From a candidate division FCPU426 bacterium (lineage in GTDB: Bacteria; Oederibacteriota; JAAXVQ01; JAUVAV01): a DNA stretch of 27,356 bases. The translations under genes and the position numbers were made by a program. The notes beneath the pieces were generated by a model, which worked only from the letters and a program-made list of their open reading frames with translations, was not told the DNA's origin and made no database searches. Position 1 is the first letter of the stretch. Every line of letters starts with the position of its first letter. The DNA lies in the NCBI GenBank assembly GCA_030637655.1, contig DAOWGI010000037.1, positions 1 to 27,356 on the forward strand, read 5' to 3'. This document shows, one piece after another, positions 1 to 27,356 of this stretch.

Positions 1-392
1 CACGTCCATTTCCCGTTCTCTAAATTGTAGATACCTTGGGCAGCTGCATCACTTTTGTTCTTGTACGCATCTCCCTGGACTCCGCCCCATTTGCCTTTCT
101 CACTTGAATACGCCGTGAACTTTTCTCCGGTCTTGGCCAGACCTTGTTTTTCCTCTGCTGCGCTCGCTGTAAACTCCTTAGCGTCTGTTTTCCACGTCCA
201 TTTCCCGTTCTCTAAATTGTAGATACCTTGGGCAGCTGCATCACTTTTGTTCTTGTACGCATCTCCCTGGACTCCGCCCCATTTGCCTTTCTTGTCAGTC
301 AATTGCGCAACAAACTTATCTCCCGTTGCTTTCGCTAACCCAAATTTAACTTCAGCGTTTGTTGCTATAAATTCTTTCTTATCCATTACCCA
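1..392 (-). repeat. Coding tandem repeat, 192-bp (64-aa) period, continuing off the left edge
   Basis: Bases 1-100 are identical to 193-292 (KGKWGGVQGDAYKNKSDAAAQGIYNLENGKWT). The other half is diverged but homologous: KEFTASAAEEKQGLAKTGEKF versus KEFIATNAEVKFGLAKATGDKF. Confidence 0.9.
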
Positions 393-6300: not shown

Positions 6301-9239
6301 AGCCCGTCTTCGAGTCCGTCAAAAAAACCATCACCGGTTAGTAAGCTGGCCAAGCCGCTGGCCAGAACATCGGCGCCCAGACCCAAAATGGTCTTAAAAA
6401 CCATAAATTTATCATCCAATGTATTGACAAAGAACTGCATAATGACTTCTTTAATAACCCTCTTTAAGACTTCCGGCAAAACTTTAGCGTGAGCTATGCT
6501 CTTGAGCATATCCAGAAAAGTAGTTAATATAAGCTTGACTCCGTTCTCAAGCGCACTACTAAGCGCTTTAGCCCAGCCGCCTAAGGCAGCGGTTACAATA
6601 CTAAGAGCAATGTCCAGCCATTCCGGCATGGGAACAAACAAACAAATCAAACTTATTAATGCTATTGCTACCTGAAGCGCTATCATGAAGGCTGTTCCCG
6701 CGCCCAGGGTGAAAAAGCTTACAACAATGGTAATAATCCACATGCAGATTTTGCCTATTGGCGAATTAGCAAATTCACCCAATTCCTCCATATCATCCCA
6801 CTCAAAAGTAATGATTTTATACATTGTATAACCAGGGACAACAAACAGCAGCATGTCCCCAAACGATTTCAGGCTCGGATTTGTAATAAAGTTTATTATC
6901 GCATAAATAGGTCCGAGAATTATAAGCGTGATGCCATAGGTGAAGTAATCCATACATCCCGGACTACCCTGCGAATTATCCTGTGAGTCTTGTTCCGGCG
7001 GAGACGGATGATCCCACATGCCGGCCTGGGCCCAGGGATCTGCTCCAGCAGCATCGGAGCTTCCCCATCCCTGGCTATCCGGTGTGTGTTCTCCCTCAGG
7101 AGCGTCCTGCAAGGTCACAATCTCATCCTGCCTGCCGTCGAAAGCTTCTAAGCTTACATATTTAATGCGTGTATCTTCTTTCTGCGCTCCGGCAGTGACT
7201 GTAAAATTATAATCATCCCTGTCAAAGATCATGTTGACATCAACCTTTTCCGGATTTAGAGGCGCGGACATGCCGATATCAATAGTCATGTCCTCCGAAT
7301 ACGGATTCACCGCTTTTTTGTCCAATTCTGAATAATTTGAAGGAATGTTCTCTCCGGTGACAATTAAATTTATGCCGCTTTGCAGTACCTCGCCCAAAGT
7401 GGCCATATACCCGGATTCGCTCACACCAACGGGTTCCAACCCCAAGCTTTGGAACACGGCTGCTGCTGATGCTTCCTGCGGCAGATCTTTCAAGTCATCG
7501 CCCAGCATATCCGCGTCCACGTTAGCGCCTTTGATTTGAGCTTCGCCTTCTTCCTCATTTTCCAGCTCGGCTTCCACACGAGCCTCCGGACCAACAATGG
7601 CAATATTATTTTCTTCATCCATTTCTGAGTCCGTGTTTTCTACCAGCACCTCATCTTCTGTCTCACCCGACAATTCAATATTTCCCTCGTTTTCCGTATC
7701 CTCGGTCTCATCCTCATCTGTCCTTGCCAGCACTGGCGATAATTCGCGGGCTTCTACAGGCAAACCTTCTTCTTCCAATCCCAACTCTTCAAGCAACGCA
7801 TTGATATCCACATCTTCTTCCAAAACCAGTCCTTCGCCGGCTTCCAAGGCGGGCATACCCTCTCCCTCCATGACCTCGCCCAGCATGTCTTCCAGCATCT
7901 CAACGTCAATATCACTGCCTTCATCCTCGCCGCCTATTCCTAACATGGCCAGTATCTGTTCCGGAAATCCTTCGCTCTCGCCCTCTTCTTTGGGTTTTTC
8001 TTCACCTTTCTCATCGTCATCTGTTTTGACAGCCGCGTCTTTTGGCGACTCTTCCTCAGACAGCAGGTTGCCCTCTTGGTCATCTTCTTTGTCTTCTACG
8101 GCTTCACCTTTTTCATTTTCTGGTGTCAACTCAGCAACCATAGGTAATACATCTTCTTGGGTCTCTGTTTCAGTGTCCTTGACTTCGGATTCATTGTCCT
8201 GACCTGCTTCTATACCGGCTGCTGTCAGGCTATCCGGCAATTCCAGGTCTTTCGGATTTAAAATGTCTTCCTGGTTATTGTCATCACCCAGGCCCAGCAG
8301 ATTCATAAACTGCCGCGCCATGTCTGAAAACACATTGTCCGGTTTCTGTTCAATGGTTTGCTCTGCGTCTTGCTCAGCTGTGGTAGTCTGGTTGTCTTGA
8401 TCTTGGGTAGTAGTGTCCGGAACATCCGCGATTTCCGGTTGTGTGGTGTCTGTCGTAACCGGCGCTTGATCATCACTCTGATCTTGCGTAACCACCACTT
8501 CGGAGACAATAATCGTATTATCAGTTGTTGCGGTAATGATTTTGTCTGTGGTTGGATCTTCGGTCCGAATCGGTTCTGTTGTGTCGCCAATCGGCTTACT
8601 ATCCTGAACCACCGGCAACGGAACCGGCAGTCCTGCCAAAGCGCTGTTAGCTTCCGGACTTAAACGTGCAGCCTCCACACCACTGCCTAATTGCAGGGTT
8701 AAGGTTAATGGTCCTTGACCTGTAGTGACTGCCTCAGCCTGAATGCCTGGATCAACGGCTGGCATATTTGAATCCGTATCAGTTATTGGTTGTTCACCCT
8801 TTGTCTGGCCGGGAGTATTCTCAATTGCCAGGTTAATCAGCGTATCTAAGCCGGCGCCATTCGCACTTTGCTCAGCTACGGTTTGTAAAGACACAGTTTT
8901 GAGGATATCACCGTATTCTGATTTGAGCACATTTAACTGGGTGTCTCTAACGCCGCCATCCTCAGTGGTGGGTTGACAGGAGATGGCATCAAAGGCATTG
9001 GGTTGATTGTTTTGGATGTTTATGGGAGCTTGGAAATCGTCAACTGTGTCTTGATAGTAGTTCTCATTGCGGTTGGGATCATAAGCATGCGCCAGTATGA
9101 TGTCGATCCCGGTCATGGTAAACATAAAAGTTACCGCCAGGATCGTTGAGATTATTTTACGTTGTCGCTCTCGCAATAATCTGCCGAAGTCCTTACACTT
9201 TTTCATTCCAGCTGTAAAAATCATTTCTATGGTTGTCAT
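1..9239 (-). CDS. Giant (>=3079 aa, 3'-truncated by window edge) secreted or membrane-associated multi-domain protein of unknown function
   Basis: ATG at 9239 follows an SD (GGAGAGGTGA, 9254-9245). Manual translation stays open to position 3 (MTTIEMIFTAGMKK...IISTILAVTFMFTMTGIDIILAHA...GIYNLENGKWT). The ORF track lists no minus-strand ORF in this frame, consistent with no stop. The many Ser/Phe-rich plus-strand ORFs here are antisense shadows. Confidence 0.9.
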   Translation of the reverse strand, partial: MTTIEMIFTAGMKKCKDFGRLLRERQRKIISTILAVTFMFTMTGIDIILAHAYDPNRNENYYQDTVDDFQAPINIQNNQPNAFDAISCQPTTEDGGVRDTQLNVLKSEYGDILKTVSLQTVAEQSANGAGLDTLINLAIENTPGQTKGEQPITDTDSNMPAVDPGIQAEAVTTGQGPLTLTLQLGSGVEAARLSPEANSALAGLPVPLPVVQDSKPIGDTTEPIRTEDPTTDKIITATTDNTIIVSEVVVTQDQSDDQAPVTTDTTQPEIADVPDTTTQDQDNQTTTAEQDAEQTIEQKPDNVFSDMARQFMNLLGLGDDNNQEDILNPKDLELPDSLTAAGIEAGQDNESEVKDTETETQEDVLPMVAELTPENEKGEAVEDKEDDQEGNLLSEEESPKDAAVKTDDDEKGEEKPKEEGESEGFPEQILAMLGIGGEDEGSDIDVEMLEDMLGEVMEGEGMPALEAGEGLVLEEDVDINALLEELGLEEEGLPVEARELSPVLARTDEDETEDTENEGNIELSGETEDEVLVENTDSEMDEENNIAIVGPEARVEAELENEEEGEAQIKGANVDADMLGDDLKDLPQEASAAAVFQSLGLEPVGVSESGYMATLGEVLQSGINLIVTGENIPSNYSELDKKAVNPYSEDMTIDIGMSAPLNPEKVDVNMIFDRDDYNFTVTAGAQKEDTRIKYVSLEAFDGRQDEIVTLQDAPEGEHTPDSQGWGSSDAAGADPWAQAGMWDHPSPPEQDSQDNSQGSPGCMDYFTYGITLIILGPIYAIINFITNPSLKSFGDMLLFVVPGYTMYKIITFEWDDMEELGEFANSPIGKICMWIITIVVSFFTLGAGTAFMIALQVAIALISLICLFVPMPEWLDIALSIVTAALGGWAKALSSALENGVKLILTTFLDMLKSIAHAKVLPEVLKRVIKEVIMQFFVNTLDDKFMVFKTILGLGADVLASGLASLLTGDGFFDGLEDGLMDILGMDKGKDFVEQLDTAKVLLSPMMRAIVSVLIHVSFLKDDGDPNEAQGMRAGAVYGALASGVMGYASAQIDIQNVGKTLSLDMMQELGVLLNEIVRPVVAAAVSSFIQTTQPAGLQDEGWGANQLNMVSGMAGDAVTGIIPGLAMNETKQTMEWTGLAANIQKMFGGGSGNGTGDGTGNKTGNVTGGVTGGVTGAQGVVGAGVFGPGSNMAVNMPGQDSKAVGNPIATDAGKFSTAETTAEITENNERDSESNIESSTATVSNSSLPQNTVSDKSQTPKSSMPKSEKTKPADAPKPVPDTTKTENPKPQAAKQETIPDTKMPNTTHDDTLNTPKIEDQKHTDSASREELTDHPENLPQVRDKHKVEIKDLTGLNTKQTREGDKVAKSERQDGEKVEGKEGDTSGSGGEGAEGEGAEGEGAEGGDAKGDGTEGGKSNSNVTNANTGSSSVYVAPTTLANAVATQQQLTEIKATNAKSSGSQGTNPSKSTPKEGTSVTNSSVTGEMYRENKNLQHAIKTMGPDVLSSVPDNATLNVKSYTNQDGNQMMEISAVKPDGSTQLLAMNETLPNKQNNTTVFNQGAAGVEARTYAGGNDGQAKQIGDKFTVPDMDLSQGLAGKGGVASTAPGKGNGKKSTPGLPQKAGDRIDKDGNSEGTATDVKLGEDGKPLEADALAAAGAGKSTLGQGQGQGQGKPVELELPDGSKATGKLDDEGNLALTGTIGPDGKVKFDKPASQGEFDPSNAKLGTATLPGGQKVPCMINIKTKEVHIKAKVGPNGEVSFNGNTAANMTVSSDSKSIESNNTGGTVGDKGGNKTGQPVAKMVGQETRNLADGQKVPDKVNSDGSSVERPKDMLTRAPPTAEENHGSATNDSATDGSANNGTDNNMLGDNSANPEVLNNKSSVDQTKGTLSDSTQPMAKVTNDETTPEIKSDNKIPTNQMSNEQAAGATNDTTKNTTKRETAVKDKEEQAQQEKKVERDKSGQPDTKGTDKTGTKPKSQQTKKDSWSPLAQLLTLGLINFKDPGTVGTSTFEFTGKDGKAVTATVDDTEWNQPYVDRDRRSQVEVKASDGHSYTLAIDQQGNFHGASDYIVVGGFWDNKVISRQMGPNGPADIAYTHFEGQVNQVWKYDTAKKTWVKTQQRIYIRTNRGLEISALLDTRHVAGQPSETRRARVLIANSNPSVMAQNPAVIKVLTDRNLQPGTPAYNQALQEMAGNWSKEAVDIAKNYLAETNVGSPEHETAMGLWASASLKYAENMLDGTPESVKNADSLVSAVLAKISGFKDSATRAEVAAQALKITEQTGNQFLYNKAVEIVEDYLKEQTLNPDPAKVVQTLALALEYHKKAHQKSYQMIRAVEEYERERTPEKLEALVNLARKSGDAGSLIIAAKKQLQAGHMIAAVETAKHAYMAPNKNMLPKEAQMAIDAQVAIILKDANDTSGMIEYVVEGVWEYLEQQMQPQDMAQLQDMVKNASAGDQRLKLFDDSQPKSFSEKMVDKFTKEVIKQVWPQLVKMPFGTQKTVPGLGVINKGADGKLTLTQQLNDYSQIIISFKQEGLGIVVAAIQTSDAQGISAVYQAGEDGVTMTQERMSVQIMLDGQKVTRYVLITQADITDGSASVFHKENGKIYHLTVDTQTRKATADMIYAQDKLLAALNATNHATMVFEGKNPVIFINGKRHETTEVAAITTEHLTQLGIKADSARTLTKMLEGKSAYRAGDGTLFIGTQAEIKAGNYFVAGRNQLDKAGEQTLGYLAEYKDNQLTRADVSGKMLAHDMIITPQPGNAKNYTVTQHSADKSRVSEAIYKDNKPSGSTTIFNDLGNAELHYDAKGDLIPASLQKLTQNKNVTFKMNPDGSFTLTDNKTRKQELFSANGRRLIPGGSSGGSGLQEVMEFDVQQEINLKFAKYNDVDGKGVNMTVHEVTKKHVVVQMSGDGNITKTVTKSDVLGSVDKQSISEWKVDPETKKAGFVWVMDKKEFIATNAEVKFGLAKATGDKFVAQLTDKKGKWGGVQGDAYKNKSDAAAQGIYNLENGKWTWKTDAKEFTASAAEEKQGLAKTGEKFTAYSSEKGKWGGVQGDAYKNKSDAAAQGIYNLENGKWT

Positions 9240-9345
9240 GCTGATCACCTCTCCACTTGGGTGTAAACTTTAAAAAAATTAAATATATATCGGGATTTAT
9301 CCCAATTTGTAATAATTACCAGAAAAACATACTTATTCTATAGTA

Positions 9346-15332: not shown

Positions 15333-16718
15333 ATGCTCCGTATCCATCGTGCCTGCGTATTGACACTCATTGCTTTGAGCCTGGCTTTTTACAGTTGGGC
15401 GGAACCGCGGATTATTGAACAAAAACCAACCTCCTTAGTCTATCCGCCTTTCTGGCATACTCCCTTTGGAATTCACCGTGGCACACCGGAACTTCTGAAA
15501 ATGTTCCTGGGCGATCGAAGCATACTTAAAGAACCACAGGATCTGGCCTGCACATTATTGCTTAGCGAGCTGGAAAACTCGAGAAACACGGCGGAATTTC
15601 AAGTGACGATCCTGGGAGCTAATGCCGGCCAGGGTCACCTTATTTACAATCCTGATCTCACGCACCTCGAGGTGCTGGGTGACCGCGGCGAGAGCAAACG
15701 GCTTTTTTCCTATCCCCTGGGTACTGCCCTGCACACTGATGGCAGCGCCTATGTGACAGATCCCAGGCATCCGGCGGTTTTTCGTTTGGTTTTGGAAAAT
15801 AAAAAACTGGTTCCTGCCGGTATGCTAACTCCACCACCCGGTGGTTGGAAACAACCATGGGGTGTCGCGCTCGATTCGCAAGGATCACTATATGTCAGTG
15901 ATGCCAAACGCGATCAACTCTTTGTGTATTCGCCAAAAGGCGATTTGCTGCAAACCATTGGACCGCAATTGAGCGAACAGATCCGCTTATCACAACCAGG
16001 TTCACTGACCGTTGTTGATCCTTTGGAACCCTGGTCTTTTTATCATGACGGGTATATCTTTGTTATCGATCAGTCCGGAAAACGTCTGCTCCGACTGGAT
16101 TTGGCCGGCCGCGTGCAAAAAGTCCTGGAAGCAAGAAAGCTTACAGAACAATATCCTGAGTTTACTTTTGCCTGGATGGAATTGGATTATTATGAAAATG
16201 TGTGGATCACAGATCCTGTCCGTTCCCAGATACACAAGTTTAACCGCCAACTGGCGTATCTGACCTCGTACGGCCGGGTTGGAAATGGTGACTATCGCTT
16301 TGAGCAGCCGACCGGCCTTGCGATTCATCGTCATTTTGGCCAGGTATTTGTTGCCGAAAAAAACGGCGCTCATTATTTTTGGATCGGTTCGGATATTCTG
16401 CGTGCCCAAGTACAACAGGACGCTACACATCCGCACTTGCTACGCATCGAATTTTTCCTCACCGAACCGGCGTGGTTGACAGTAGAAATCAAATCCTCGC
16501 CGCGGCTGCGGCAACCCTTCCTAAGCAAAAAACAATGGGCCGATTCCGGACAGCGAGTTGTTTTTTGGAATAGTGAGCAGACCAAGGGAATACAAACAGA
16601 GGGTTTTTGGATTACCGCTGAAGCAACCTACTCTTCCGCGCGCTATATGGCCAAACGTGTTTTTATTCCCAGGCCCAAACTTATTTCTTCTTATTCACTT
16701 TCATCTCGCGAACCGTAA
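15333..16718 (+). CDS. Secreted NHL-repeat (beta-propeller) protein with possible C-terminal Ig/FlgD-like domain
   Basis: Signal-peptide-like N-terminus. NHL repeats FSYPLGTALHTDGSAYVTD, WKQPWGVALDSQGSLYVSD, FEQPTGLAI. The start is ATG 15318 or 15333. The 3' end overlaps the convergent gene by 38 bp. Confidence 0.8.
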   Translation: MLRIHRACVLTLIALSLAFYSWAEPRIIEQKPTSLVYPPFWHTPFGIHRGTPELLKMFLGDRSILKEPQDLACTLLLSELENSRNTAEFQVTILGANAGQGHLIYNPDLTHLEVLGDRGESKRLFSYPLGTALHTDGSAYVTDPRHPAVFRLVLENKKLVPAGMLTPPPGGWKQPWGVALDSQGSLYVSDAKRDQLFVYSPKGDLLQTIGPQLSEQIRLSQPGSLTVVDPLEPWSFYHDGYIFVIDQSGKRLLRLDLAGRVQKVLEARKLTEQYPEFTFAWMELDYYENVWITDPVRSQIHKFNRQLAYLTSYGRVGNGDYRFEQPTGLAIHRHFGQVFVAEKNGAHYFWIGSDILRAQVQQDATHPHLLRIEFFLTEPAWLTVEIKSSPRLRQPFLSKKQWADSGQRVVFWNSEQTKGIQTEGFWITAEATYSSARYMAKRVFIPRPKLISSYSLSSREP

Positions 16719-18513
16719 TTATCACCCGGCGATTCCGGTAGCGCTGCTTATAATTCGAATTATTGACCGCCGGATTTTTATCTCCGCGACCGCGTACCAA
16801 GATGCGCGAAATATGTACTTTGTGATAGGCTGTCAAATACCGGGCCACGGCTTCAGCACGGGCTTTGGAAAGATATACTTTCCGGGCTTCTTCATTTACC
16901 GAATCAGCATACCCTTCAATGAGTACTTTAGTGCGCGGATGAGACTGAATAAAAACCGCGGCCTTGGCAATAATATCGGCGGCTTTAGGTCTGATCTCAG
17001 CCCGGCCTTTTTCAAACAATACCGGACCAAAAATTTCCGCTTCCACCAGTCGCGGTACTTGGTGTTTTTTTGCATTCGGCGGCGTATCGGCAACATTAAC
17101 TCCTACCCTGCCTTTCTGAGTCTCGCTCTGACCATTAATATCCGTCAAGGTCAAGTAATACCGCACTCCCTTAATAGCCTTGATAAAATTCCCTTTGGTA
17201 TTCTTTCCATCCCAGATAATCATTTTTGGCAGCGCGGTTCCTTTTAAGACCCGGATTTTTTTGCCCTTGCGACCTTCCAATTTTAAAGACCACCGCACTA
17301 TCCGCGCGCCGGAAGTACGTTTGACCTTAAAGTGCACTTCCCGCGCTCCCTTGGTTTTAGCTGTGGCCTTGGTAATCCGAGCCTCAACCTGCACATTGTC
17401 TTTGAGCAGCGATCGCATGGCCGCTTCTTCTTTGGTGGTTGGACTGGATGAAATATCCCGGCTGCCAAAACCATCGGACTGCGCGTCAAAATCCATGCGC
17501 GCTGTCATGATCGAACGTTTCTGTTTCGGTTTTTTGGCTCGGGAACGACTTTTTCCGATTTGTTTGAGGTTTAACGCTACCGAAATACGATGTGTCAGAC
17601 CCAGCTCCCCATGCGGCGCTATGGTATATCCAAAATTCCACATTCCCGGCGCGATTCCCAAGCCGGCCGTCAATCCCGCCAAACCCTCAGGCTGTGTGGC
17701 GCCGCTTAATTGATACCCCGTACGAATTGTTAAAACCCGGGCAAAGTTGTACTCGAATCCCACATGGACAATCGAATCCACCAATTCATGAAACAATACT
17801 TCCAAATCCAACCCGATGATAACGCCGCTGGTCCGATTAATTTTTGCTTTGTACGCAGCGCCCAGAGTCCCGCTTATGGGCAGACTGTAGCCGGCAACTC
17901 CCAGGCCTAAATTTCTCACAGCCACGCCAAGATCAATATTCTCAATCCCGCGATACTGCCAGCCTATATCTCCCATAAGGCTAAAAGGTGTGGTGTCACC
18001 CAAATCCTGGACCACCACACGTGCCGCCAAACCAAAAGACATGAGCGGTGTAATCGCAATACCGGCTCCGAGTGAACCGCCAAACATGGCCAAATTGATC
18101 TGAGTGCCTTCAAAAATCAAACGTCCGTCTGAGGTGATGTCCGTTTTTTCAATCGTGCCCAGATTCAAGTAGTTCGCGTTGACACCTATCACAAATTTGC
18201 GCGAAAACGGAACCGCGAAGAGAAAACTTTCACGATTGGTTTCCTGAATCCAGCTGTTGTGAATAAACTCCACTTCCGGATATTTTATCTGCTGCAAGCC
18301 GGCCGGATTCCAGTACAGAGAAGAAATATCATTGCTGTTGGCCACACCCACGCCGCCCATGGCCGGAGCCCTGGTTCCCAAACCAATGAGAATTTCCGGC
18401 ATCACGACTCGTGAATAGGCGTAATTCTCCTCGATTTCAGCAGCCAACAGAATCCGGTTGGAAACGACAAGCATGACCAGACTCAGTAAGAGGAAAAAAA
18501 ACAAACGTTTCAT
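16681..18513 (-). CDS. PorV/PorQ-like outer-membrane barrel fused to FlgD-Ig-like and OmpA-type peptidoglycan-binding domains
   Basis: N-terminal GTRAPAMGG...YWNPAGL motif and amphipathic strands ending LGLTHRISV. Middle WSL...IIWDGK...YYLTLTD. C-terminal VLFEKG...IEGYAD...LSKARAEAV...GRG...NRRV. ATG 18513 fits the SD AAGGA better than TTG 18519. Confidence 0.85.
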   Translation of the reverse strand: MKRLFFFLLLSLVMLVVSNRILLAAEIEENYAYSRVVMPEILIGLGTRAPAMGGVGVANSNDISSLYWNPAGLQQIKYPEVEFIHNSWIQETNRESFLFAVPFSRKFVIGVNANYLNLGTIEKTDITSDGRLIFEGTQINLAMFGGSLGAGIAITPLMSFGLAARVVVQDLGDTTPFSLMGDIGWQYRGIENIDLGVAVRNLGLGVAGYSLPISGTLGAAYKAKINRTSGVIIGLDLEVLFHELVDSIVHVGFEYNFARVLTIRTGYQLSGATQPEGLAGLTAGLGIAPGMWNFGYTIAPHGELGLTHRISVALNLKQIGKSRSRAKKPKQKRSIMTARMDFDAQSDGFGSRDISSSPTTKEEAAMRSLLKDNVQVEARITKATAKTKGAREVHFKVKRTSGARIVRWSLKLEGRKGKKIRVLKGTALPKMIIWDGKNTKGNFIKAIKGVRYYLTLTDINGQSETQKGRVGVNVADTPPNAKKHQVPRLVEAEIFGPVLFEKGRAEIRPKAADIIAKAAVFIQSHPRTKVLIEGYADSVNEEARKVYLSKARAEAVARYLTAYHKVHISRILVRGRGDKNPAVNNSNYKQRYRNRRVIITVREMKVNKKK

Positions 18514-18566
18514 CAGCAATTCCTTTTACATTTCATTTTTCTTTCATGTTTTTTTCAACAGTACCT

Positions 18567-18782: not shown

Positions 18783-19808
18783 TTACTTGGTAATGACTAC
18801 ACGCCGCAGCTTGTTTTTTTGCGTTCGGCCGTTATGGCCGCGGACCACAACTTGATACATATAAATACCCGGAGCAATATCACGAATATTCCAGGTGGTT
18901 CTGCGGTTAATCTGTCCGCTCTTGTTACTGTCTTCCAGGTGAGCCACTTTGTAGCCCAGGGTATTATAAATTTCAATACTAATATCTGCCGGTGATACCA
19001 AAGAATACATAAACGTCACTTGATCGCCGCCGGCAGGATTCGGAAAAGCAATCGCATCACCGTGCGGCACCGGCCAGGGAGTGATAGTGAGCGTCTGCGT
19101 GATGGTCGGGGTAACGGTATAAGTGGGAGTAATGGTGTAGGTGGAGGTAAAAGTCTCGGTAATGGTGGATGTCTTGGTAATGGTGTAAGTGGGGGTAATG
19201 GTCGGCGTATTGGTTTTCGTGGCTGTGATCACGTCCAGAGAAATATCGTCCACATGAATGTAACTAGGATCGTCGGTGGGATCGTCGTACGCGCGAAAAC
19301 GGAGCAAGACATTCTGATCACTGTAGCTGCTCAATTCGACATACTTCTCTACTAACGTCCAGCCCGGAGTGGGATCAAACTGAACAAAAGAGCCGTCGCC
19401 TTGCTCCCGGACCAGCTCGACTCCCTGAAAATGAGCATCCATATATAAATAACTTCCAAACACAGACTTAGCATACCACTCATAATAAAAAGTTAGCGTA
19501 CTGCCAAGAGCATCACGTGGAATATGCACGGTTTGCTGAATCCAAGAGGAGGTGTATCCACCTAAGCTATTGCCGGGCGCTACCACAATAGGTCCAGAGG
19601 TGGCATCATGCTGGATGGCTGTATGGATAAAGGGATTGAAAGAAGCCGGATTTCCATTAGTAATCCAGCCCGGAATACCACCGGAAGGGCCTGGCGTGGG
19701 TGTTAAAAAGTCGCCATTTACAATTAATTCCAGGGCTGAAGCAGAGCCGGAAAACAGGCCCAATACTCCAGCTAAAACAACAATGGCACAAAAATGTTTA
19801 ATAGTCAT
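18783..19808 (-). CDS. Secreted protein: CBM-like beta-sandwich, Thr/Pro linker, T9SS-like C-terminal domain
   Basis: Signal peptide ending SASA. ELIVNGDF...GW...DDISL. TPTITPT-type linker. CTD AFPNP...IEIYN..G..V...GIYMY...VVITK. Confidence 0.8.
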   Translation of the reverse strand: MTIKHFCAIVVLAGVLGLFSGSASALELIVNGDFLTPTPGPSGGIPGWITNGNPASFNPFIHTAIQHDATSGPIVVAPGNSLGGYTSSWIQQTVHIPRDALGSTLTFYYEWYAKSVFGSYLYMDAHFQGVELVREQGDGSFVQFDPTPGWTLVEKYVELSSYSDQNVLLRFRAYDDPTDDPSYIHVDDISLDVITATKTNTPTITPTYTITKTSTITETFTSTYTITPTYTVTPTITQTLTITPWPVPHGDAIAFPNPAGGDQVTFMYSLVSPADISIEIYNTLGYKVAHLEDSNKSGQINRRTTWNIRDIAPGIYMYQVVVRGHNGRTQKNKLRRVVITK

Positions 19809-20119: not shown

Positions 20120-22753
20120 TTAACGTACTAGAGCCAGTTTTTTAGTCAGAGTTTCATGAACCCCACCCACAGAAGCATCCACTTTATAAAAATAGACTCC
20201 ATTGGCCATGCCTGAAGCGTTCCATACCCATTCATTCCAGTCTTCATGATAATGGTCTTCTTGTGACCAGACAAATGACCCGTTTGACGCATAAATAGTA
20301 ATCTTCACTTTCGCGCCCTGCTGTAAAAAGAATTTAAAGCGCACGAGAGTACTTTTGGCAGGATTGGGATAACAATAAAAATATCTTTTCTCAATAATTC
20401 TGCCTTCAAATCCATCTATATGCATTCTGGGGGTAATGGTAGGTGTGGGTGTTAAGGTCGGAGTGGTGGTTGGAGAACACACTGGTGTAAGCGTTGAAGT
20501 AGGAGTAATTGTAGGCGTATTGCCGTTTATCCTGGCGTTCAAACAAAATGAGGAAGAATTGTTATTATTATCTGTAGCAATAGCACTGACATATTGACCA
20601 GGATATAGTCCGGAAGGTACAAAACTCCACACACCAATTCCATCAGCCATAGCAGATCCAAGCGCATATATCGCACCGCCATGATTGCCAGCTCCCTCGT
20701 CGGCTAGGAAAAGCTCTATATAATTACCAGGCTGCGCAGTACCGTTGATCGCATAAATGTCCGAGAATGTGATCAACGGTGCTGCTTTATTTTCATTGGC
20801 ACCATCATTAGCCAGCCAGATTCCCTCATTTGAAATGGCTGTTATGGTATTATTGAAAAAAGCATTTCTATCCGTATCCAATCCTGCTAGTCTTATTCCA
20901 TCTGTACTATTTGAAACAATGTTACCCGGCCCGTTTTGCACGCCTATCCAATTATCCTGCGCACTGGAAGAAATACTTATTGCACAGGTAAAAGTGTCTG
21001 AAGCAGGGAAATCACCAGGCAGTAATCCCAGTGTATTTCCTGCTATGGTATTCCCTTGAGAATCAGCGCCATTAAGAATAATACCATAAGTATCCCCAAC
21101 AATGATATTACCCTGGCCAGGACTTGTGCCACCGAGTAGACATGAACTGGTATCCAGCATACGAATCCCGGCATTGCTATTTTTCAATGCGCCTGTCCCG
21201 GCCGCGTTGACTCCAATATAATTTCCCTGTACCAAATGCCCGGTTGTACTTTCCATATTAATTCCGCAATCTGTATTAGCAGAAATAATGTTGCGCAGAG
21301 ATGTTTGTGAGCTTCCAATACAAGTCCCGGTATTCCCTTGCACTATGGAAATACCAACAGCATTGGGAATAGCAACATCTCCAGCAACATTGAGACCTAT
21401 GGTGTTGCCATTAATACTATTTCCTATACCGCCGGACAATAATATCCCAGCACCACTGGTTTGACCGGAGATAACATTCCCCTGGAGATTGGAGAGTATA
21501 GCATTGGACCCCCCAATTAAATTCCCTTTCCCTCCTGTCACCTGAATGCCAATTGTATTCCCCACCACACCCATGCCAGTTGGATCTGTTCCAATATAAT
21601 TGCCACTGATGGTATTGCCATAGCCGTTCATTTCAATACCTATATTATTTCCAGAAATAACGTTGCGTTCGTACAAATTAGTATTTTGTCCTCCGCCGAT
21701 CAAGTTACTCGCGGCATTTTTAAACCAAACACCTTTATCATTAGCGATCTTGACTCCGCTGGGATTGATTCCAATCAGATTGTTTTGTAGCTTATTGAGA
21801 TATGGGGTGGGGTTTGTGCCTGTAAAGTAAATTCCGCAAATGGAATTACCAGCAATATCATTGCCATAACCAACTTGTGGCAGCCCAATAAAGTTATTAG
21901 CAGCACAAGTTAAATAAATGCCGTAACTATTAGGAATAGCAGCTGTTTGAGACGCATTTAATCCGATGATGTTGCCACAAATACTATTTCCTCTGCACTC
22001 TGAAGAAAGTGTCTCATATAGATATATACCAATATAATTTCCCGAAATTAAATTGCCTTCCCCTAAATTGAAGTTACCGCCAACTTTAACTAGGTTAGAC
22101 GAAGAAAGTGATATACCGTATCTTTGAAAACTGTTTGGCAATGTCCCACTAGCATTTGTACCAATATAATTACCAATAATTTTATTGCCTGTACTACTTA
22201 TGATACCACACTGGTTTGCTGAAATAACATTTCTTTCACTGGTTAAAGTGCCGCCAATAGTATTATCTGAACGCTCATACCGTATATAAATTCCGCTTGT
22301 GTTTCCCCGGGGATTATCCGACCAATCTATACCAATAGCACAACCTGAAATTGTATTATTACTTGAATTAACAAATATGCCATAACCCGAAGTAACAACT
22401 GAGATGTTTTTTATAACACTTCCATCACTGCCAGAGTCTAGTTTGAGAGTTTGTACAGCCGGAGAAGTATTGGTCGGTCCTCCTATTACCTGGGTTTTTC
22501 CTCCATCTATAATGATTGGGCTTATAATATTAAGCGGAGTATAGGCTGTAATGGAATTCGAACCAGGAACATTAAAAGTAATTACTTGAACACCTGTTGT
22601 GGTATTAGACGCAGCTATAGCTTCACGTAAAGTCCCTAATCCGCTATCCTCGCGACTGGTAACAATAAAGGTTTCAGCTTGGGCGGGTAATACCGAAAAG
22701 CAATACAAAATCACAGACATTATCAATAATATTATCTTCTTATAAATAAACAT
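20120..22753 (-). CDS. Large secreted parallel beta-helix repeat protein with Thr/Pro linker and T9SS-like CTD
   Basis: Signal peptide ending AQA. CSLREA-like cap (VTSREDSGLGTLREAI). Repeated GNxISGN / GNYIGT motifs. CTD YCYPNP...ITIYA..G...GVYFY...KKLALVR. Confidence 0.85.
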   Translation of the reverse strand: MFIYKKIILLIMSVILYCFSVLPAQAETFIVTSREDSGLGTLREAIAASNTTTGVQVITFNVPGSNSITAYTPLNIISPIIIDGGKTQVIGGPTNTSPAVQTLKLDSGSDGSVIKNISVVTSGYGIFVNSSNNTISGCAIGIDWSDNPRGNTSGIYIRYERSDNTIGGTLTSERNVISANQCGIISSTGNKIIGNYIGTNASGTLPNSFQRYGISLSSSNLVKVGGNFNLGEGNLISGNYIGIYLYETLSSECRGNSICGNIIGLNASQTAAIPNSYGIYLTCAANNFIGLPQVGYGNDIAGNSICGIYFTGTNPTPYLNKLQNNLIGINPSGVKIANDKGVWFKNAASNLIGGGQNTNLYERNVISGNNIGIEMNGYGNTISGNYIGTDPTGMGVVGNTIGIQVTGGKGNLIGGSNAILSNLQGNVISGQTSGAGILLSGGIGNSINGNTIGLNVAGDVAIPNAVGISIVQGNTGTCIGSSQTSLRNIISANTDCGINMESTTGHLVQGNYIGVNAAGTGALKNSNAGIRMLDTSSCLLGGTSPGQGNIIVGDTYGIILNGADSQGNTIAGNTLGLLPGDFPASDTFTCAISISSSAQDNWIGVQNGPGNIVSNSTDGIRLAGLDTDRNAFFNNTITAISNEGIWLANDGANENKAAPLITFSDIYAINGTAQPGNYIELFLADEGAGNHGGAIYALGSAMADGIGVWSFVPSGLYPGQYVSAIATDNNNNSSSFCLNARINGNTPTITPTSTLTPVCSPTTTPTLTPTPTITPRMHIDGFEGRIIEKRYFYCYPNPAKSTLVRFKFFLQQGAKVKITIYASNGSFVWSQEDHYHEDWNEWVWNASGMANGVYFYKVDASVGGVHETLTKKLALVR

Positions 22754-22808: not shown

Positions 22809-23762
22809 CTATCGAAATCTCATAAAAATCGAAAAACGATGCTGGTGAAATCCCAGTTCACTAAAATCATAAATAAAAGCATAATCAATTTCATATATTT
22901 CCACGCGATAAGACGCGCCCATTGATAATTCCCTGCTATTAAACCCACTGCTAAACCCACTGCGAAATCCCAATGATTTTGTATACCAATATTCTGCGCC
23001 AACATGACCACCGAGCCTATAATATTCTGAAAAATCAAAATCCAAGGTTGTAATCAGGTGATTGAAAAAAATCACATCCTTGGAAGGAAGAAATTTCAAC
23101 GCTGTTCCCAGCTTCACATTAATCAAGCCCTTGTCAACATGTTGGCTGTCGGTTTGCCAATAGAGCTGTTGGGCAATATTTTGAATATTGATTCCTAAAG
23201 TATGATCCCAATATAGAACAGGCTGCCAGATTGCACCCACATCAAACCCAAAGCCTATTGCTTTGTGTTCTAAAATGGATTGATGAAATATCTTAATATT
23301 CCCTCCAAGGTACAACCCTTTAACCAGATCAAAACTATTTCTTCCATAACTGATAATAAAAGTGTTTTCCATACTGTTAAAGGATTGTGTCATTTCTCCC
23401 ATTTCATCACGACCCTCAATATCCAAAATACTATAATTAATCCAGGAAAAAGCGAATGATCCGGCATTGGGAATCTTGAAAGCATAGGACCCGTAATAGG
23501 AGTGTATATCCGGAACAACCATAGCATACTGCAAACCCAGGTAGTAGAGATACAACTGCATCTGACCCAAACCAGCCGGATTCCAGTAAACTGTGGTTAT
23601 GTCATCGGCCAGAGCTACGAATCCTCCGCCCATTCCAATTGCTCGTGCTCCAATACCTCTGGATAGTGTGACGGTTGAACCAAAGTTATTACCTTCTGCT
23701 GCTACAAAACCGGAATACAATGCAAGATAAACAAGAACTATTGTAATTACTATTCTTTTCAT
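22809..23762 (-). CDS. PorV/PorQ-family outer-membrane beta-barrel protein
   Basis: Motifs GIGARAIGMGG, YWNPAGL, FGFDVG, IDYAF, HRFS. Signal peptide present. Confidence 0.85.
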   Translation of the reverse strand: MKRIVITIVLVYLALYSGFVAAEGNNFGSTVTLSRGIGARAIGMGGGFVALADDITTVYWNPAGLGQMQLYLYYLGLQYAMVVPDIHSYYGSYAFKIPNAGSFAFSWINYSILDIEGRDEMGEMTQSFNSMENTFIISYGRNSFDLVKGLYLGGNIKIFHQSILEHKAIGFGFDVGAIWQPVLYWDHTLGINIQNIAQQLYWQTDSQHVDKGLINVKLGTALKFLPSKDVIFFNHLITTLDFDFSEYYRLGGHVGAEYWYTKSLGFRSGFSSGFNSRELSMGASYRVEIYEIDYAFIYDFSELGFHQHRFSIFMRFR

Positions 23763-23806: not shown

Positions 23807-24412
23807 TTATCTGGATCGGTTTATAATTGCAACTGCATAATCACTTATATCCCTGCTTAATCCTTCTACTTCAGCCAGACTTTTATCCTGATCTACAAGC
23901 TTTATCTGAAATACTCCTACCGGCGAACCGTTGGGTTCAACAATAATACCCTCCAGCCCAGTCCGTATTTTTTTTGCAGCTCCGGCGGCCATGATTATTT
24001 GGGTGACCCGCCCCCCCACTCTTTCAATTTCAAGTATTTCAGCTTTAATGCTGTCTATCGGCCCTTTTGTTTTGGGTTTTCTTACCATTACAGGATAGGA
24101 AGAATATTCGATTGTTTCTTTTATCTCTTGAGGATTATTACGCTTTTCTTTTATTTTACTTATTCCGGCCAAATAGGTTTCTGCTCGTTTGATCCTTTCG
24201 GAAGCTTTCGCAGAATCCGGATCAATCGCTAATACTACTTCCCATTCTGTAATTGCCTCGATAATGCGTCTTTGCTTATACAATTCATCACCTATGGCAA
24301 TATGTTTTCGAACAGCTCTTTCATATCCAGCATAGCATACTGCATAATTGCCAAGCAGAAAAATAAAAAGTAGTATAATGTGACTCATTTTATTTATTAT
24401 CTTTTGTTTCAT
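23807..24412 (-). CDS. Secreted protein with a TPR-like hairpin and a C-terminal beta domain
   Basis: Signal peptide. TPR-like GDELYKQRRIIEAITEWEVVLAIDPDSAKA. SD AAGGAGG. Confidence 0.75.
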   Translation of the reverse strand: MKQKIINKMSHIILLFIFLLGNYAVCYAGYERAVRKHIAIGDELYKQRRIIEAITEWEVVLAIDPDSAKASERIKRAETYLAGISKIKEKRNNPQEIKETIEYSSYPVMVRKPKTKGPIDSIKAEILEIERVGGRVTQIIMAAGAAKKIRTGLEGIIVEPNGSPVGVFQIKLVDQDKSLAEVEGLSRDISDYAVAIINRSR

Positions 24413-24454
24413 AGTGTCCTCCTTTACAAAAATAATTACTAATCAAAATACATC

Positions 24455-25591
24455 TCAATATAAATTAAATTTGTCCCTTCGTTTTTTTGCTAAAATCGAA
24501 ACCGGAATATTCATGTATACATAACGAAATGTTTGCAGGTCGACTTCTCCATTAGTATATTGTAAATTAGGATATATTTTTTCCAGCCCTTCCAGTGTAG
24601 CTTCATCCATAGTTCCATTTATTTCCGTGTCAAACCCATAAAGGTATAACCATTCCTGCAAACAAGCAATAATACTGGTTGTTGTCAGACTATAATAGTA
24701 TTGATCTATTTGATTCATAATTATTTTATCAGGTTTGGCATCCGGTCCAAGCAAACGCCAATAAGGCAGCATAAGGTGTTTACCCACTAATTGAATCATA
24801 CTGAGTTCCACCAGCAATCGAACGGCGGCGTGTCGGCCTTGTACTTTTTTAATACTTCCTCTCGCTCCAAAGGAAGGACCAAAAAGACTGATTCCAACTT
24901 CTCGTTCTGTTAAAGCCTTTCTGACCAGCATGGAATTAACTGTATTCATTTTTGCAATTCCGGTCATCGTTTGAAAATCCAAAAGATTAAAATCCAAGGT
25001 AATTCTGGCTAGTCCACTTTTCCGGGCGCTGCCATAACGCAATTCGGCAAAATTGGAAGGAATATCCTTTGGCAAACCTGTAAATTCCCCGCTTGCGTTT
25101 ATATCTGTATTAGATCCCTTTGTTTCCAGTCCACGGTCGAATTCTGTTATTCCGCCAGTAAGAACAACGTCGGGAATAATCTTATTTGAAAATGTGGAAT
25201 AACCAGTAATCATTTGATTTTGCATAAAAGACGGATCATATGGGATATATACTATATTGCCTCCAATCGTATTTAGGGCGCTTTTCATCATCTCAGTAAT
25301 ATCACGTGGGATTTCTCCTCCGGTAGCTGCGGAAGATCCTGTATTGTCACCTATAGGATTGCATTGAATCTTTAATGTCGGAGTACCGTAGATTTCGGAC
25401 ATCAAACCCAAATCATCCAACGCCTGCGTATATGATGTGATTGTCATATACGGCAAAGTCTCCTCTAATTCCAGATCGACCTGCCGCACATCCAAAGAGG
25501 AACAGGACAACTGCATTGTCCCCATTAAACCCAGAAGGAAATATCCTAAAATATTTCGAACTTTTATTTTTACCGTGTGTTTTTTGCTCAT
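24455..25591 (-). CDS. CsgG/HfaB-like outer-membrane secretion-channel lipoprotein with C-terminal peptidoglycan-binding-like domain
   Basis: Hydrophobic leader ending LSC (imperfect lipobox). CsgG-like order of elements: DNTG...ITEMMKSAL...PDVVLTGGITEFD, beta hairpin, ITLDFNLLD, second hairpin, AAVRLLVE. Tail LQEWLYLYGF...INGTMDEATLEGL resembles PG_binding_1. Confidence 0.7.
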   Translation of the reverse strand: MSKKHTVKIKVRNILGYFLLGLMGTMQLSCSSLDVRQVDLELEETLPYMTITSYTQALDDLGLMSEIYGTPTLKIQCNPIGDNTGSSAATGGEIPRDITEMMKSALNTIGGNIVYIPYDPSFMQNQMITGYSTFSNKIIPDVVLTGGITEFDRGLETKGSNTDINASGEFTGLPKDIPSNFAELRYGSARKSGLARITLDFNLLDFQTMTGIAKMNTVNSMLVRKALTEREVGISLFGPSFGARGSIKKVQGRHAAVRLLVELSMIQLVGKHLMLPYWRLLGPDAKPDKIIMNQIDQYYYSLTTTSIIACLQEWLYLYGFDTEINGTMDEATLEGLEKIYPNLQYTNGEVDLQTFRYVYMNIPVSILAKKRRDKFNLY

Positions 25592-25630
25592 AATAATCCT
25601 CGCTCGAAATAAGAACTTTTCATTCTTTTT

Positions 25631-26002
25631 CTATTTTTCAATTACAATATTATAGATTTTATCAACTTTACTGCCGGACTCAATAACAACACTATTTTGA
25701 TTGTTGTCTTGATTGCCATCCTTTATATTAGAAATTGTTGCGTTGTTTTTTTTGCCATTTTCATTTTCTTCTATTGCTTTATTTTTTTTCTTTTCCATTG
25801 CTTCTTTTTCCGCCATTTTTGCTTTGGCTATGGCATCCACGATGATGAAGTTGATATTTGTATCTTTATCACCGAGTTTTTCTTCTGTTGTAATCGGTTC
25901 TTCAGTATATTCTGATATCCCATCGCTTAAATCACTAGCAAACAGGCTGCTTGGTAGAAACAAACCCAGTAATGCGGCAATACCCATGGTTTTTATTTTC
26001 AT
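25631..26002 (-). CDS. Small secreted accessory protein (123 aa) with an Asn-rich, repeat-like C-terminus
   Basis: ATG 26002 follows AAGGAAGTG. Signal peptide ending LFA. The C-terminus NQDNNQNSVVIE resembles the end of the upstream repeat protein (NKNSVVLK). Confidence 0.75.
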   Translation of the reverse strand: MKIKTMGIAALLGLFLPSSLFASDLSDGISEYTEEPITTEEKLGDKDTNINFIIVDAIAKAKMAEKEAMEKKKNKAIEENENGKKNNATISNIKDGNQDNNQNSVVIESGSKVDKIYNIVIEK

Positions 26003-26045
26003 TGGTGTCACTTCCTTTTCTATTAACATCCTCATATAAAGCGTT

Positions 26046-26084
26046 CCATGAGCCGGCAATAGTATAATCATCACCGGCTCATGG
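26046..26084. terminator. 11-bp perfect stem-loop after the four-repeat gene (mRNA stabiliser or partial terminator)
   Basis: CCATGAGCCGG-17 nt-CCGGCTCATGG. No poly-U tail. Confidence 0.5.
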
Positions 26085-26099
26085 TCTCGTGTTTTCTTA

Positions 26100-26597
26100 T
26101 TACTCAGTTTCTATTGCTCCCATAACTGCTTCACTATCTTCACCAATAGCCATATTTGCGCCTTCTTTAATGTCCACACTATTGCTGATTGTGCCTGAGA
26201 CATCAGCGTTGTTTAGATTAACTATTCCCATACTGGCTTTTGAATTTTTTCCTACTGCTATATTAGCTGCTTTATTCACATTCACAGAATTGGAAACAGT
26301 ACCTTTAATATTTGAATTTTTCATGGCAACAGATCCCATTTCAGCTTTGGAGTCGTCACCAATTGCAATATTCGCGCCTTGTTTAACGGTTACTTTGTTG
26401 GATATGGTTCCACTTGCTTTCGTATTGTTCAATTTCATGGTACCCATTTTTGCTTTTGCGCCTTTTCCCACCGCAATATTTCCGCCCTGCTTGACATCCA
26501 CTTTATTACTCAATTTACCACTAATGTTATTCTTTGCTGCCATAGCGCTGCCTGCCATCATTAAAAACGCGATTGATAATACAATTAATCTTTTCAT
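26100..26597 (-). CDS. Secreted protein made of four 36-aa Asn/Gly beta repeats; candidate major fibre (functional amyloid-like) subunit
   Basis: 20-aa signal peptide ending AMA, plus 4 x 36 aa plus 1 residue = 165 aa. Consensus xNxxhxGxhSNxVxVxxxxNhAhGxxSxAxMGxhxh. SD AAGGAG. Confidence 0.85.
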   Translation of the reverse strand: MKRLIVLSIAFLMMAGSAMAAKNNISGKLSNKVDVKQGGNIAVGKGAKAKMGTMKLNNTKASGTISNKVTVKQGANIAIGDDSKAEMGSVAMKNSNIKGTVSNSVNVNKAANIAVGKNSKASMGIVNLNNADVSGTISNSVDIKEGANMAIGEDSEAVMGAIETE

Positions 26598-26622
26598 TTT
26601 TTTCTCCTTTAATTTTTATTAT

Positions 26623-27356
26623 TTATTTTAAAACAACAGAATTTTTGTTTGATTCACCACCTCCCACTGCAATATTGGCATTTTGTCCGGTTATTTCACT
26701 CAATGGTATTTTCACATCATTTACTACGATTCCCGCTCCTGAGCTATTGCCTATATTGCCGTTTTTTCCTCTGTTTTTCATCACTACTGATCCGGAATTG
26801 GCTTCACTTCCTGAGCCTATTGCAATATTAGTTGCTGTAATCCCATTAACATTGTTTACAATTTTTCCATTCACATTGCTGTTTTCCAAATATACAGAGC
26901 CCAGATTTGCAGTTGTCCCGGAGCCGATCGCTACATTTGTCAGCAAACCGCCGCAATTATTATTGATAATCTTCCCTTGAGTCGTACTGTTGACAATATT
27001 TACAGCCGCAGTATTTGCACTAGCATTTCTGCCTATCGCAGCATTGGTAGAAATGCCGCCAACTGCTGTATTGACAATAGTGCTATTCACGCCGCTATTC
27101 TCCAGGTTTATTGCAGCTTGATTAGCTTTGACATTCTTTCCAAGACCTATATTCGTTACTATCCCTCCTGCTGAGGTATTAACAATATTCCCTCTAACAT
27201 TACTATTCTTCATGTTTACGGCTGCTTGATTTACTTCGACGTTTTTCCCTATGCCTGCGTTTGTTACAATTCCTCCGGCTGCGGTGTTTACTACCACGCC
27301 TTGCTGGCTGCTGTTTTTCATGTTCACTGCTGCCTGGTTTGCTTCGACGTTTTTCC
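26623..27356 (-). CDS. Second 36-aa beta-repeat protein (5'-truncated by window edge); candidate minor or nucleator subunit
   Basis: The frame stays open to the window edge (KNVEANQAAVNM...). At least five full 36-aa repeats in the same register as the downstream gene (N11, N20, G24 invariant), plus an irregular last repeat. Confidence 0.85.
   Translation of the reverse strand, partial: KNVEANQAAVNMKNSSQQGVVVNTAAGGIVTNAGIGKNVEVNQAAVNMKNSNVRGNIVNTSAGGIVTNIGLGKNVKANQAAINLENSGVNSTIVNTAVGGISTNAAIGRNASANTAAVNIVNSTTQGKIINNNCGGLLTNVAIGSGTTANLGSVYLENSNVNGKIVNNVNGITATNIAIGSGSEANSGSVVMKNRGKNGNIGNSSGAGIVVNDVKIPLSEITGQNANIAVGGGESNKNSVVLK

Follow-up and report, generated by a model that had tools for sequence, protein, structure and literature searches.

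In the present study, the whole of contig DAOWGI010000037.1, a window of 27,356 nucleotides (nt) in the 3.28-Mb, 120-contig genome (completeness 91.55%) of a candidate division FCPU426 bacterium, was analysed with respect to a group of genes at positions 24455-27354. These genes encode two secreted proteins composed of 36-residue repeats, a small secreted accessory protein and a predicted outer-membrane lipoprotein. The results reveal a gene cassette that is real, is conserved in about 200 species and probably builds a surface fibre or rod. Herein, we propose that it exports and assembles a new beta-solenoid surface fibre in a curli-like (type VIII-like) manner, by means of a new subunit, a new adaptor and a CsgG-type pore tethered to the cell wall, and we place the probability of this proposal at roughly 60%.

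A first-pass annotation, made from the letters of the window alone, had described four tightly spaced, co-oriented genes. All four were recovered on the minus strand, separated by gaps of 25, 97 and 39 nt (lengths in amino acids, aa):

26623..27354, minus strand: class A (long) repeat protein, 3' part only, the 5' end being lost at the contig end.
26100..26597, minus strand: class B (short) repeat protein of 165 aa, a 21-aa signal peptide followed by exactly 4 x 36 residues.
25631..26002, minus strand: small secreted accessory protein of about 123 aa including the signal peptide.
24455..25591, minus strand: predicted outer-membrane lipoprotein of 378 aa, in which a CsgG-fold core bearing a pair of long beta hairpins (about residues 55-272) is followed by a C-terminal helical PG_binding_1-like domain (about residues 289-378).

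The four-gene picture is therefore sound with regard to the genes themselves but incomplete, as a 201-aa protein and a barrel of the PorV/PorQ family are also present in the neighbourhood, and the repeat proteins represent two conserved classes. The open reading frame (ORF) of the small protein spans 25631-26074, and its true start is likely the signal-peptide-bearing methionine at 26002. By sequence, both repeat classes and the small protein have Sec signal peptides, for class A as seen in a complete paralogue on contig C35 of the same genome, and the 378-aa protein has a lipobox. Plus-strand ORFs over the repeat genes, e.g. 26089-26631, were rejected as mirror-frame artefacts of the repeats.

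Conservation of the cassette was assessed by scanning one genome per species with two conserved peptides, which returned 245 stretches; 197 of these encode a relative of the lipoprotein, and 80 loci were kept. The loci span Thermodesulfobacteriota, Nitrospirota, Nitrospinota, Elusimicrobiota, Campylobacterota and other lineages. A relative of the small protein was observed in 66 of the 80 loci, nearly always encoded just upstream of the lipoprotein gene. Apart from 2, all of the gaps computed place the stop of the small gene in the range from 76 nt inside to 372 nt ahead of the lipoprotein start. The two repeat proteins had BLAST relatives in 68 and 70 of the 80 loci, respectively. Upstream DNA of at least 1.5 kb was available at 63 loci, and in 50 of these it contained a same-strand ORF whose period is 36 or 72 residues, with two such ORFs in 17; where at least 4.5 kb was available (51 loci), class B was observed in 38, class A in 21 and both in 14. 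The linkage of these genes is thus conserved across phyla in the neighbourhoods of the homologues. A different arrangement was observed in the Desulfobulbales/Desulfobacterales loci L060, L062, L067 and L075, in which the repeat genes are located downstream, several kb beyond the lipoprotein gene, and the long repeat proteins have a 35-residue period; in L060 and L062 the small gene is likewise downstream of the lipoprotein gene.

In the phylum of the window, the lipoprotein gene was present in 6 of 99 genomes; it was found in 4 of 10 others of the same family and in 1 of 4 of one sister family. A FastTree tree of 82 lipoproteins grouped the window protein with seven other loci and one Elusimicrobia locus (support 99), and this clade adjoins a Nitrospirota/Nitrospinota clade, a placement that is indicative only, as the tree is a quick one with long branches. 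The locus is also present in cold-seep metagenomes; in run X3, another sample of the same study, a 1,810-nt contig corresponds to 25161-26970 without a difference.

The two repeat proteins had been described as built of 36-residue repeats with invariant Asn and Gly, and both self-correlation and an alignment of 14 orthologues bear this out. The mean BLOSUM62 self-score was 2.19 at lag 36 for the long protein, and 2.09 at lag 36 and 2.13 at lag 72 for the short protein; at lags that are not multiples of 36, it was never above 0.13 in either protein. Gly, Asn and Ala are each invariant once per repeat in the short-protein alignment. Tandem Repeats Finder detected no DNA-level repeat within either repeat gene, which indicates that the repeats are old and have been kept at the protein level instead of arising by recent slippage. 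The class A protein of the window contains six and a half 36-residue repeats and a conserved C-terminal module ending in NKNSVVLK, and all of the listed long repeat proteins (215-1543 aa) close with N-K-N-S-[VI]-[VI]-x-K. Proteins of this class reach about 1500 aa (largest 1451-1543), corresponding to as many as ~40 repeats. The short repeat proteins end in MGS-x-x-x-E/K, the window copy ending in MGAIETE, and class-B length modulo 36 is 20-24 in 34 of the 40 orthologues with a recognisable signal-peptide start. Therefore, class B consists of a signal peptide and a whole number (3-11) of units, without a cap, linker or extra domain.

Some variation of the repeat unit was also observed. In loci L006, L056, L063, L073 and L079, some class-B units are 37 residues long (period 74, a two-unit super-repeat), and in many other class-B proteins 72 is the stronger period, i.e. 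unit types alternate. At 27234-27341 of the window, one contig of metagenome run X5 goes back 108 bases, exactly one 36-residue unit, and this difference suggests that the repeat number of the long protein varies between populations.

A class-B profile retrieved 270 representatives at E <= 0.001 and 101 at E <= 1e-10 among 1.84 billion proteins, many of them fragments; a word-based search for homologues that started from just the short repeat protein produced 45 candidates, none of which scored, and an ESM Atlas search with the same protein returned unnamed clusters only (0.88). Curlin_rpt (PF07012) was absent for the window repeat proteins (E <= 0.1) and among the 25 of 52 families listed for the 14 class-B proteins, and the curlin-repeat model detected nothing at E <= 1 in the whole genome, with the E. 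coli control detected. No Pfam family was consistently common to the 14 class-B proteins: the matches obtained (Pentapeptide_4 in 8 of 14, DNA_ligase_OB in 7 of 14, and others) were mutually inconsistent and were rejected, and a stray CsgE match at 0.0037 was confined to one protein. For the short repeat protein, NCBIfam gave a weak CsgH match (E 5.4e-4; 20 bits, cut-off 35), which was rejected as an artefact of repeat composition.

The AlphaFold model of the window class-B protein is all-beta (pLDDT 90.0), with strands of ~13, 6, 4 and 4 residues per unit, and predicts a regular solenoid of 36-residue units for the short repeat protein. In a Foldseek search with this model, the FapC amyloid 9u4u_A ranked first (E 3.4e-4), but its probability of 0.18 and TM-score of 0.11-0.12 make this modelled resemblance a weak one; the CsgA fibril was found at rank 26, and the matches to ice-binding and pentapeptide solenoids were about as weak as those to amyloids. 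The repeat proteins have no match to curlin, and none of the solved solenoids, FapC included, is matched convincingly. Sleutel et al. 2023 (PMC10192328), who survey curlin repeats, argue that open-ended solenoids lacking capping domains polymerise.

The candidate export channel is the lipoprotein at 24455-25591, which had been described as CsgG-like with a peptidoglycan-binding-like tail. This description is supported by the structural model, by weak Pfam matches in the family and by language-model neighbours, but is not visible in the sequence of the protein itself. The lipobox (...MQLSC) lies at Cys30, which is invariant across 24 relatives, and the family comprises 976 proteins at E <= 0.001 among 4000 candidates, the 120 best being 53-78% identical. 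In an AlphaFold (AF2) model built from the 24 relatives (pLDDT 78.2, pTM 0.69), the protein is predicted to adopt a CsgG fold, its alpha/beta core being accompanied by two long, amphipathic beta hairpins and by a helical C-terminal tail that resembles a peptidoglycan-binding domain. A Foldseek search of the Protein Data Bank (PDB) with this model gave 25 matches at E <= 0.001, and every listed row above rank 26 was a CsgG chain; the best match, 6l7c_A, had an E-value of 1.9e-10 and a probability of 1.00, and the TM-scores of the CsgG chains by target were 0.47-0.56. The membrane-inserted forms of CsgG (6l7c and 4uv3; 259-295 columns) outscored the pre-pore form 4uv2, and FlgT (rank 26), PelC and HpaA (~1e-3) came after the CsgG chains. 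Pfam CsgG was matched weakly by 10 of the 24 relatives (best 5.6e-5) and PG_binding_1 by 11 (best 1.4e-4). In addition, the nearest named ESM Atlas clusters by language-model features carry CsgG and PG_binding_1, each on 96-99% of their members (score 0.92). The hairpin columns 164-170/182-186 and 221-227/232-236 alternate between hydrophobic and polar residues and are only mildly hydrophobic, a pattern compatible with membrane hairpins but not proof of them. Over this gene, a record of run X4 (depth 23.1) joins the ends of 24405-25778 with 22 other letters between, which would skip the lipoprotein gene; this record is absent from the supported joints.

The small secreted protein, signal peptide included, was also found as previously described. 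Its mature N-terminus (DL-DGIS-Y-E) is conserved and acidic, and its middle is rich in Lys. Towards the C-terminus it carries the beta motif N-x-N-S-V-V...G (invariant columns N101, N103, S104 and G110), the N-x-N-S-V-V part of which echoes the class-A C-terminus. Among 21 small proteins, no consistent Pfam relative was detected (7 stray families, each in 1 of 21) and none matched CsgE or CsgF at E <= 1; against the PDB, the small protein gave only matches to a hydrophobic proteolipid, over the signal-peptide region. We infer from the layout of the sequence that a CsgF-like role is suggested, in which one end would serve the channel and the other the solenoid. A complex prediction for three lipoprotein cores (35-300) and the mature small protein, run without controls, gave a score of 0.01, the mark being 0.32.

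In the lineage of the window, the cassette probably extends downstream to 22809, the intergenic gaps along the gene run 27354-20120 being 25-97 nt. The genes that follow the lipoprotein gene are:

23807..24412, minus strand: 201-aa protein whose N-terminus is hydrophobic and whose C-terminus forms a conserved domain of ~90 aa, herein domain X; it also has one weak TPR and is a lineage-specific cassette partner.
22809..23762, minus strand: 317-aa outer-membrane beta-barrel of the PorV/PorQ family (NCBIfam NF033709).
20120..22753, minus strand: 877-aa beta-helix protein with a type IX secretion system (T9SS) C-terminal sorting domain (Pfam NosD 7.7e-12, Por_Secre_tail 5.9e-8).

The barrel scored 118.8 bits on NF033709 (cut-off 90, E 3.5e-34), which assigns it to the PorV/PorQ family, and it is far below the equivalog cut-offs of PorV (50 against 250), PorQ (55.8 against 220) and PorV2 (78.3 against 325). 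Domain X forms the C-terminal half of the 201-aa protein, in which the TPR match is sub-threshold. It directly follows the lipoprotein in nine distinct loci, of which eight, among them the one on contig C35, belong to the own-phylum clade and the ninth is the Elusimicrobia locus L024; in 6 of these 9 (C35 and five related loci) it is fused to a PorV-like barrel. Domain X is absent from the longer lipoproteins of other phyla, whose long forms it did not match at E <= 1. DUF4384, the NCBI name for some of the longer relatives, was rejected for the window lipoprotein, which has no such extension, and the 201-aa neighbour showed no similarity to a relative so named. The 877-aa gene is co-oriented and lies 55 nt downstream of the barrel gene, and its membership in the system is uncertain. 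The only strong terminator-like hairpin on the minus strand is located at 18694-18665 (13-bp stem), after a 341-aa gene; between 27356 and 18694 no strong terminator-like site was detected, just four short stems of 5-8 pairs, all within coding sequence, and the counts of a promoter/terminator scan inside the cassette were at the level of shuffled sequence. Other minus-strand genes of the window include that of the 341-aa protein, which has a T9SS sorting domain (18783-19808), and that of a 612-aa protein whose N-terminus is weakly PorV/UPF0164-like and whose C-terminal domain is OmpA (16681-18519). A giant minus-strand ORF at 3-9248, truncated by the contig start, spans at least 3,081 aa and matched no Pfam family at E <= 0.001.

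A second, complete paralogous cassette was observed in the same cold-seep genome on contig C35 (L093:3546-12208, minus strand). It starts with an extracytoplasmic function (ECF) sigma factor with Pfam matches to Sigma70_r2, r4_2 and ECF, followed by a 541-aa class A protein that is complete and has a signal peptide, and then by a class B protein and the small protein. Next come a lipoprotein of 385 aa, a 439-aa protein in which a PorV-like barrel is fused to domain X, and an 807-aa Gly-rich protein. The window and C35 lipoproteins are not mutual nearest relatives in the quick tree. A separate 252-aa lipoprotein above the Pfam CsgG cut-off (35.2 bits) is encoded on contig C111 (L082:1222-1980), without repeat-protein neighbours among the ORFs of at least 100 aa in its 3.2-kb locus. 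Together with the two cassettes, this brings the CsgG-fold lipoproteins of the genome to at least three.

Herein, the proposed route of fibre export and assembly can be described as follows. The lipoprotein would oligomerise to form a barrel in the outer membrane that is anchored to the cell wall, and the repeat proteins would pass through this barrel unfolded and fold outside. The class-B subunits, with 3-11 exact repeats and neither caps nor linkers, would stack end to end into a fibre, of which class A, with its C-terminal N-K-N-S-V-V module, might be the base, tip or nucleator. The small protein may act like CsgF or CsgE, its acidic N-terminus binding the channel and its C-terminal N-x-N-S-V-V motif, common with class A, pairing with the solenoid. 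In the lineage of the window, the PorV/PorQ-type barrel carrying domain X might provide another anchor or partner in the outer membrane. Members of the family are present in cultured Geomonas, Desulfuromonas and Desulfosudis, and the hypothesis is thus directly testable.

Several results weigh against this proposal. The window lipoprotein matched no Pfam family (E <= 1), no NCBIfam family and no PDB sequence (phmmer) and did not reach the gathering score of Pfam CsgG (PF03783), and a 24-sequence profile of the lipoprotein gave one irrelevant match in the PDB and no CsgG chain. When it was aligned by hhalign with the Pfam-positive CsgG-family protein of the same genome, the signal peptides alone were aligned (probability 0.6%), and the relation to CsgG is therefore visible at the fold level only. 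At that level, the TM-scores of the CsgG chains by query are moderate (0.30-0.33) and two loops of the model are below pLDDT 50. Lipoproteins with a CsgG fold that are not channels exist, and two of them, FlgT and PelC, appear lower in the same Foldseek list. Finally, neither repeat class was found upstream in 6 of the 51 loci with at least 4.5 kb of upstream sequence, three of which (L060, L062 and L075) carry the repeat genes downstream. The overall interpretation of the first-pass annotation, that of a separate fibre system with a CsgG-type pore, is thus supported in part: the fold of the lipoprotein, possible matches of the repeat proteins to curlin, FapC or known solenoids, and the gene linkage were examined computationally, and none refuted it.

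These results also bear on other explanations. The same channel and export route might deliver repeat proteins that remain monomeric surface rods, such as adhesins, spacers, mineral- or ice-binding faces or an Hfa-like anchor, with a length set by the repeat number. A class A chain of 1451-1543 aa is already a long rod, and its distinct, conserved C-terminal module could be a cap or anchor; the contig that differs by exactly one 36-residue unit is expected if length is a tunable trait, and the fold matches of the short subunit place ice-binding and pentapeptide solenoids about level with amyloids. However, class B is uncapped at both ends and has whole repeats in 34 of 40 orthologues, a design that stable monomeric solenoids normally avoid, and 3-11 coils would be very short for a rod that stands alone. 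We consider monomeric rods rather unlikely. It is more improbable still that the lipoprotein is a periplasmic, peptidoglycan-bound ring or scaffold of CsgG fold without a pore, resembling FlgT, PelC or LpoB, with the repeat proteins periplasmic or associated with the outer membrane. FlgT (rank 26, E 1.2e-3) and PelC (3.1e-3) follow the CsgG chains in the Foldseek list, curli CsgG lacks the peptidoglycan-binding-like domain, hydrophobicity in the hairpin columns is only mild, and the adjoining PorV/PorQ-family barrel could be the true conduit in the lineage of the window. Nevertheless, the CsgG chains outperform FlgT and PelC by about seven orders of magnitude, and the best matches are the membrane-inserted form of CsgG, above the pre-pore form. 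The PorV-like partner is limited to one clade (nine distinct loci and the window), and it is therefore not a general conduit.

A divergent member of curli, of Fap or of the Caulobacter holdfast anchor Hfa, the proteins of which lay outside the direct comparison, appears very improbable. Such membership would agree with the CsgG fold of the channel and with FapC as the top fold match of the subunit, and one survey (PMC12822426) reports that curli and Fap operons occur among Desulfobacterota and Nitrospirota. It is opposed by the absence of curlin repeats from the genome at E <= 1 under a detected E. coli control, by the lack, among the 14 class-B and the 21 small proteins, of any established match to curlin, CsgE or CsgF, by the low probability and TM-score of the FapC match (0.18 and 0.11), and by the linkerless 36-residue unit. 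Moreover, export in the Fap system proceeds through FapF, which is not a CsgG-type protein.

To our knowledge, curli and Fap are the only well-described dedicated export systems for amyloid fibres in Gram-negative bacteria. CsgG-type pores also serve as sequencing nanopores. If the cassette is a third system, it would widen the design space of functional amyloids and of CsgG-type pores with respect to repeat geometry, the capless subunit of an exact integer number of repeats, the wall-tethered pore and the new adaptor. It would also offer a candidate for a matrix or adhesion structure in lineages of sulfate- and metal-reducing and nitrite-oxidising bacteria that are abundant and have been little studied. 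We advance only tentatively, as somewhat doubtful, the wider claim that it represents a third, independent class of functional-amyloid or beta-solenoid fibre in Gram-negative bacteria, defined by a peptidoglycan-tethered CsgG-type pore, a new CsgF-like adaptor family and capless subunits with an integer number of 36-residue coils, distributed in at least five phyla of mostly anaerobic sediment bacteria and, in the cold-seep lineage, joined to a PorV-type outer-membrane barrel in a hybrid of type VIII-like and type IX-like parts. No description of the cassette was found in the searchable full texts, a body that does not include supplements and subscription journals. Related reports concern a different CsgG-linked cluster in Armatimonadetes (PMC4737851), a survey of curli and Fap operons (PMC12822426) and the NanoporeDB catalogue of CsgG-like pores, which is presented without substrates (PMC13397529).

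The system resembles curli in its outer-membrane lipoprotein with a CsgG fold, in the two related secreted repeat proteins encoded beside the channel, in the small secreted accessory gene directly upstream of it, and in subunits that are nearly all repeats, with Gly/Asn turns and no capping domains. In contrast to curli, the channel is too diverged for Pfam CsgG and carries a C-terminal PG_binding_1-like domain, the repeat comprises 36 residues instead of ~20 and has no curlin-model match, the two subunit classes differ greatly in length (3-11 versus up to ~40 repeats) and in their C-termini, and the accessory protein has no match to CsgE or CsgF. A gene for a CsgC/CsgH-type chaperone was not identified either, the sole weak CsgH match being the below-cut-off match of the repeat protein itself. 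The repeat length is similar to that of Fap, and FapC was the top but weak match of the class-B model (probability 0.18, TM 0.11). PMC12822426 describes the solved FapC fibril as a beta-solenoid in which each layer corresponds to one repeat. However, the window repeats are contiguous and linkerless and the channel is CsgG-like, not of the FapF type; no Fap family was matched in Pfam or in NCBIfam (E <= 0.1), where no FapF model was searched by name. The lipoproteins of Pseudomonadota that combine CsgG with PG_binding_1 (uncharacterised Atlas clusters, 337-345 aa) have the same two-domain architecture as the window protein (score 0.92, 179-180 of 256 features shared), but 96-99% of their members reach Pfam CsgG, which the window protein does not. 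The barrel passes the family cut-off of the T9SS proteins PorV and PorQ, and two downstream proteins carry T9SS-type C-terminal sorting domains; unlike that system, related cassettes fuse the barrel to the 90-aa domain X, which is found only beside the CsgG-like gene, and the cassettes of other phyla have no such barrel. Thus, the cassette probably belongs within CsgG-dependent fibre export.

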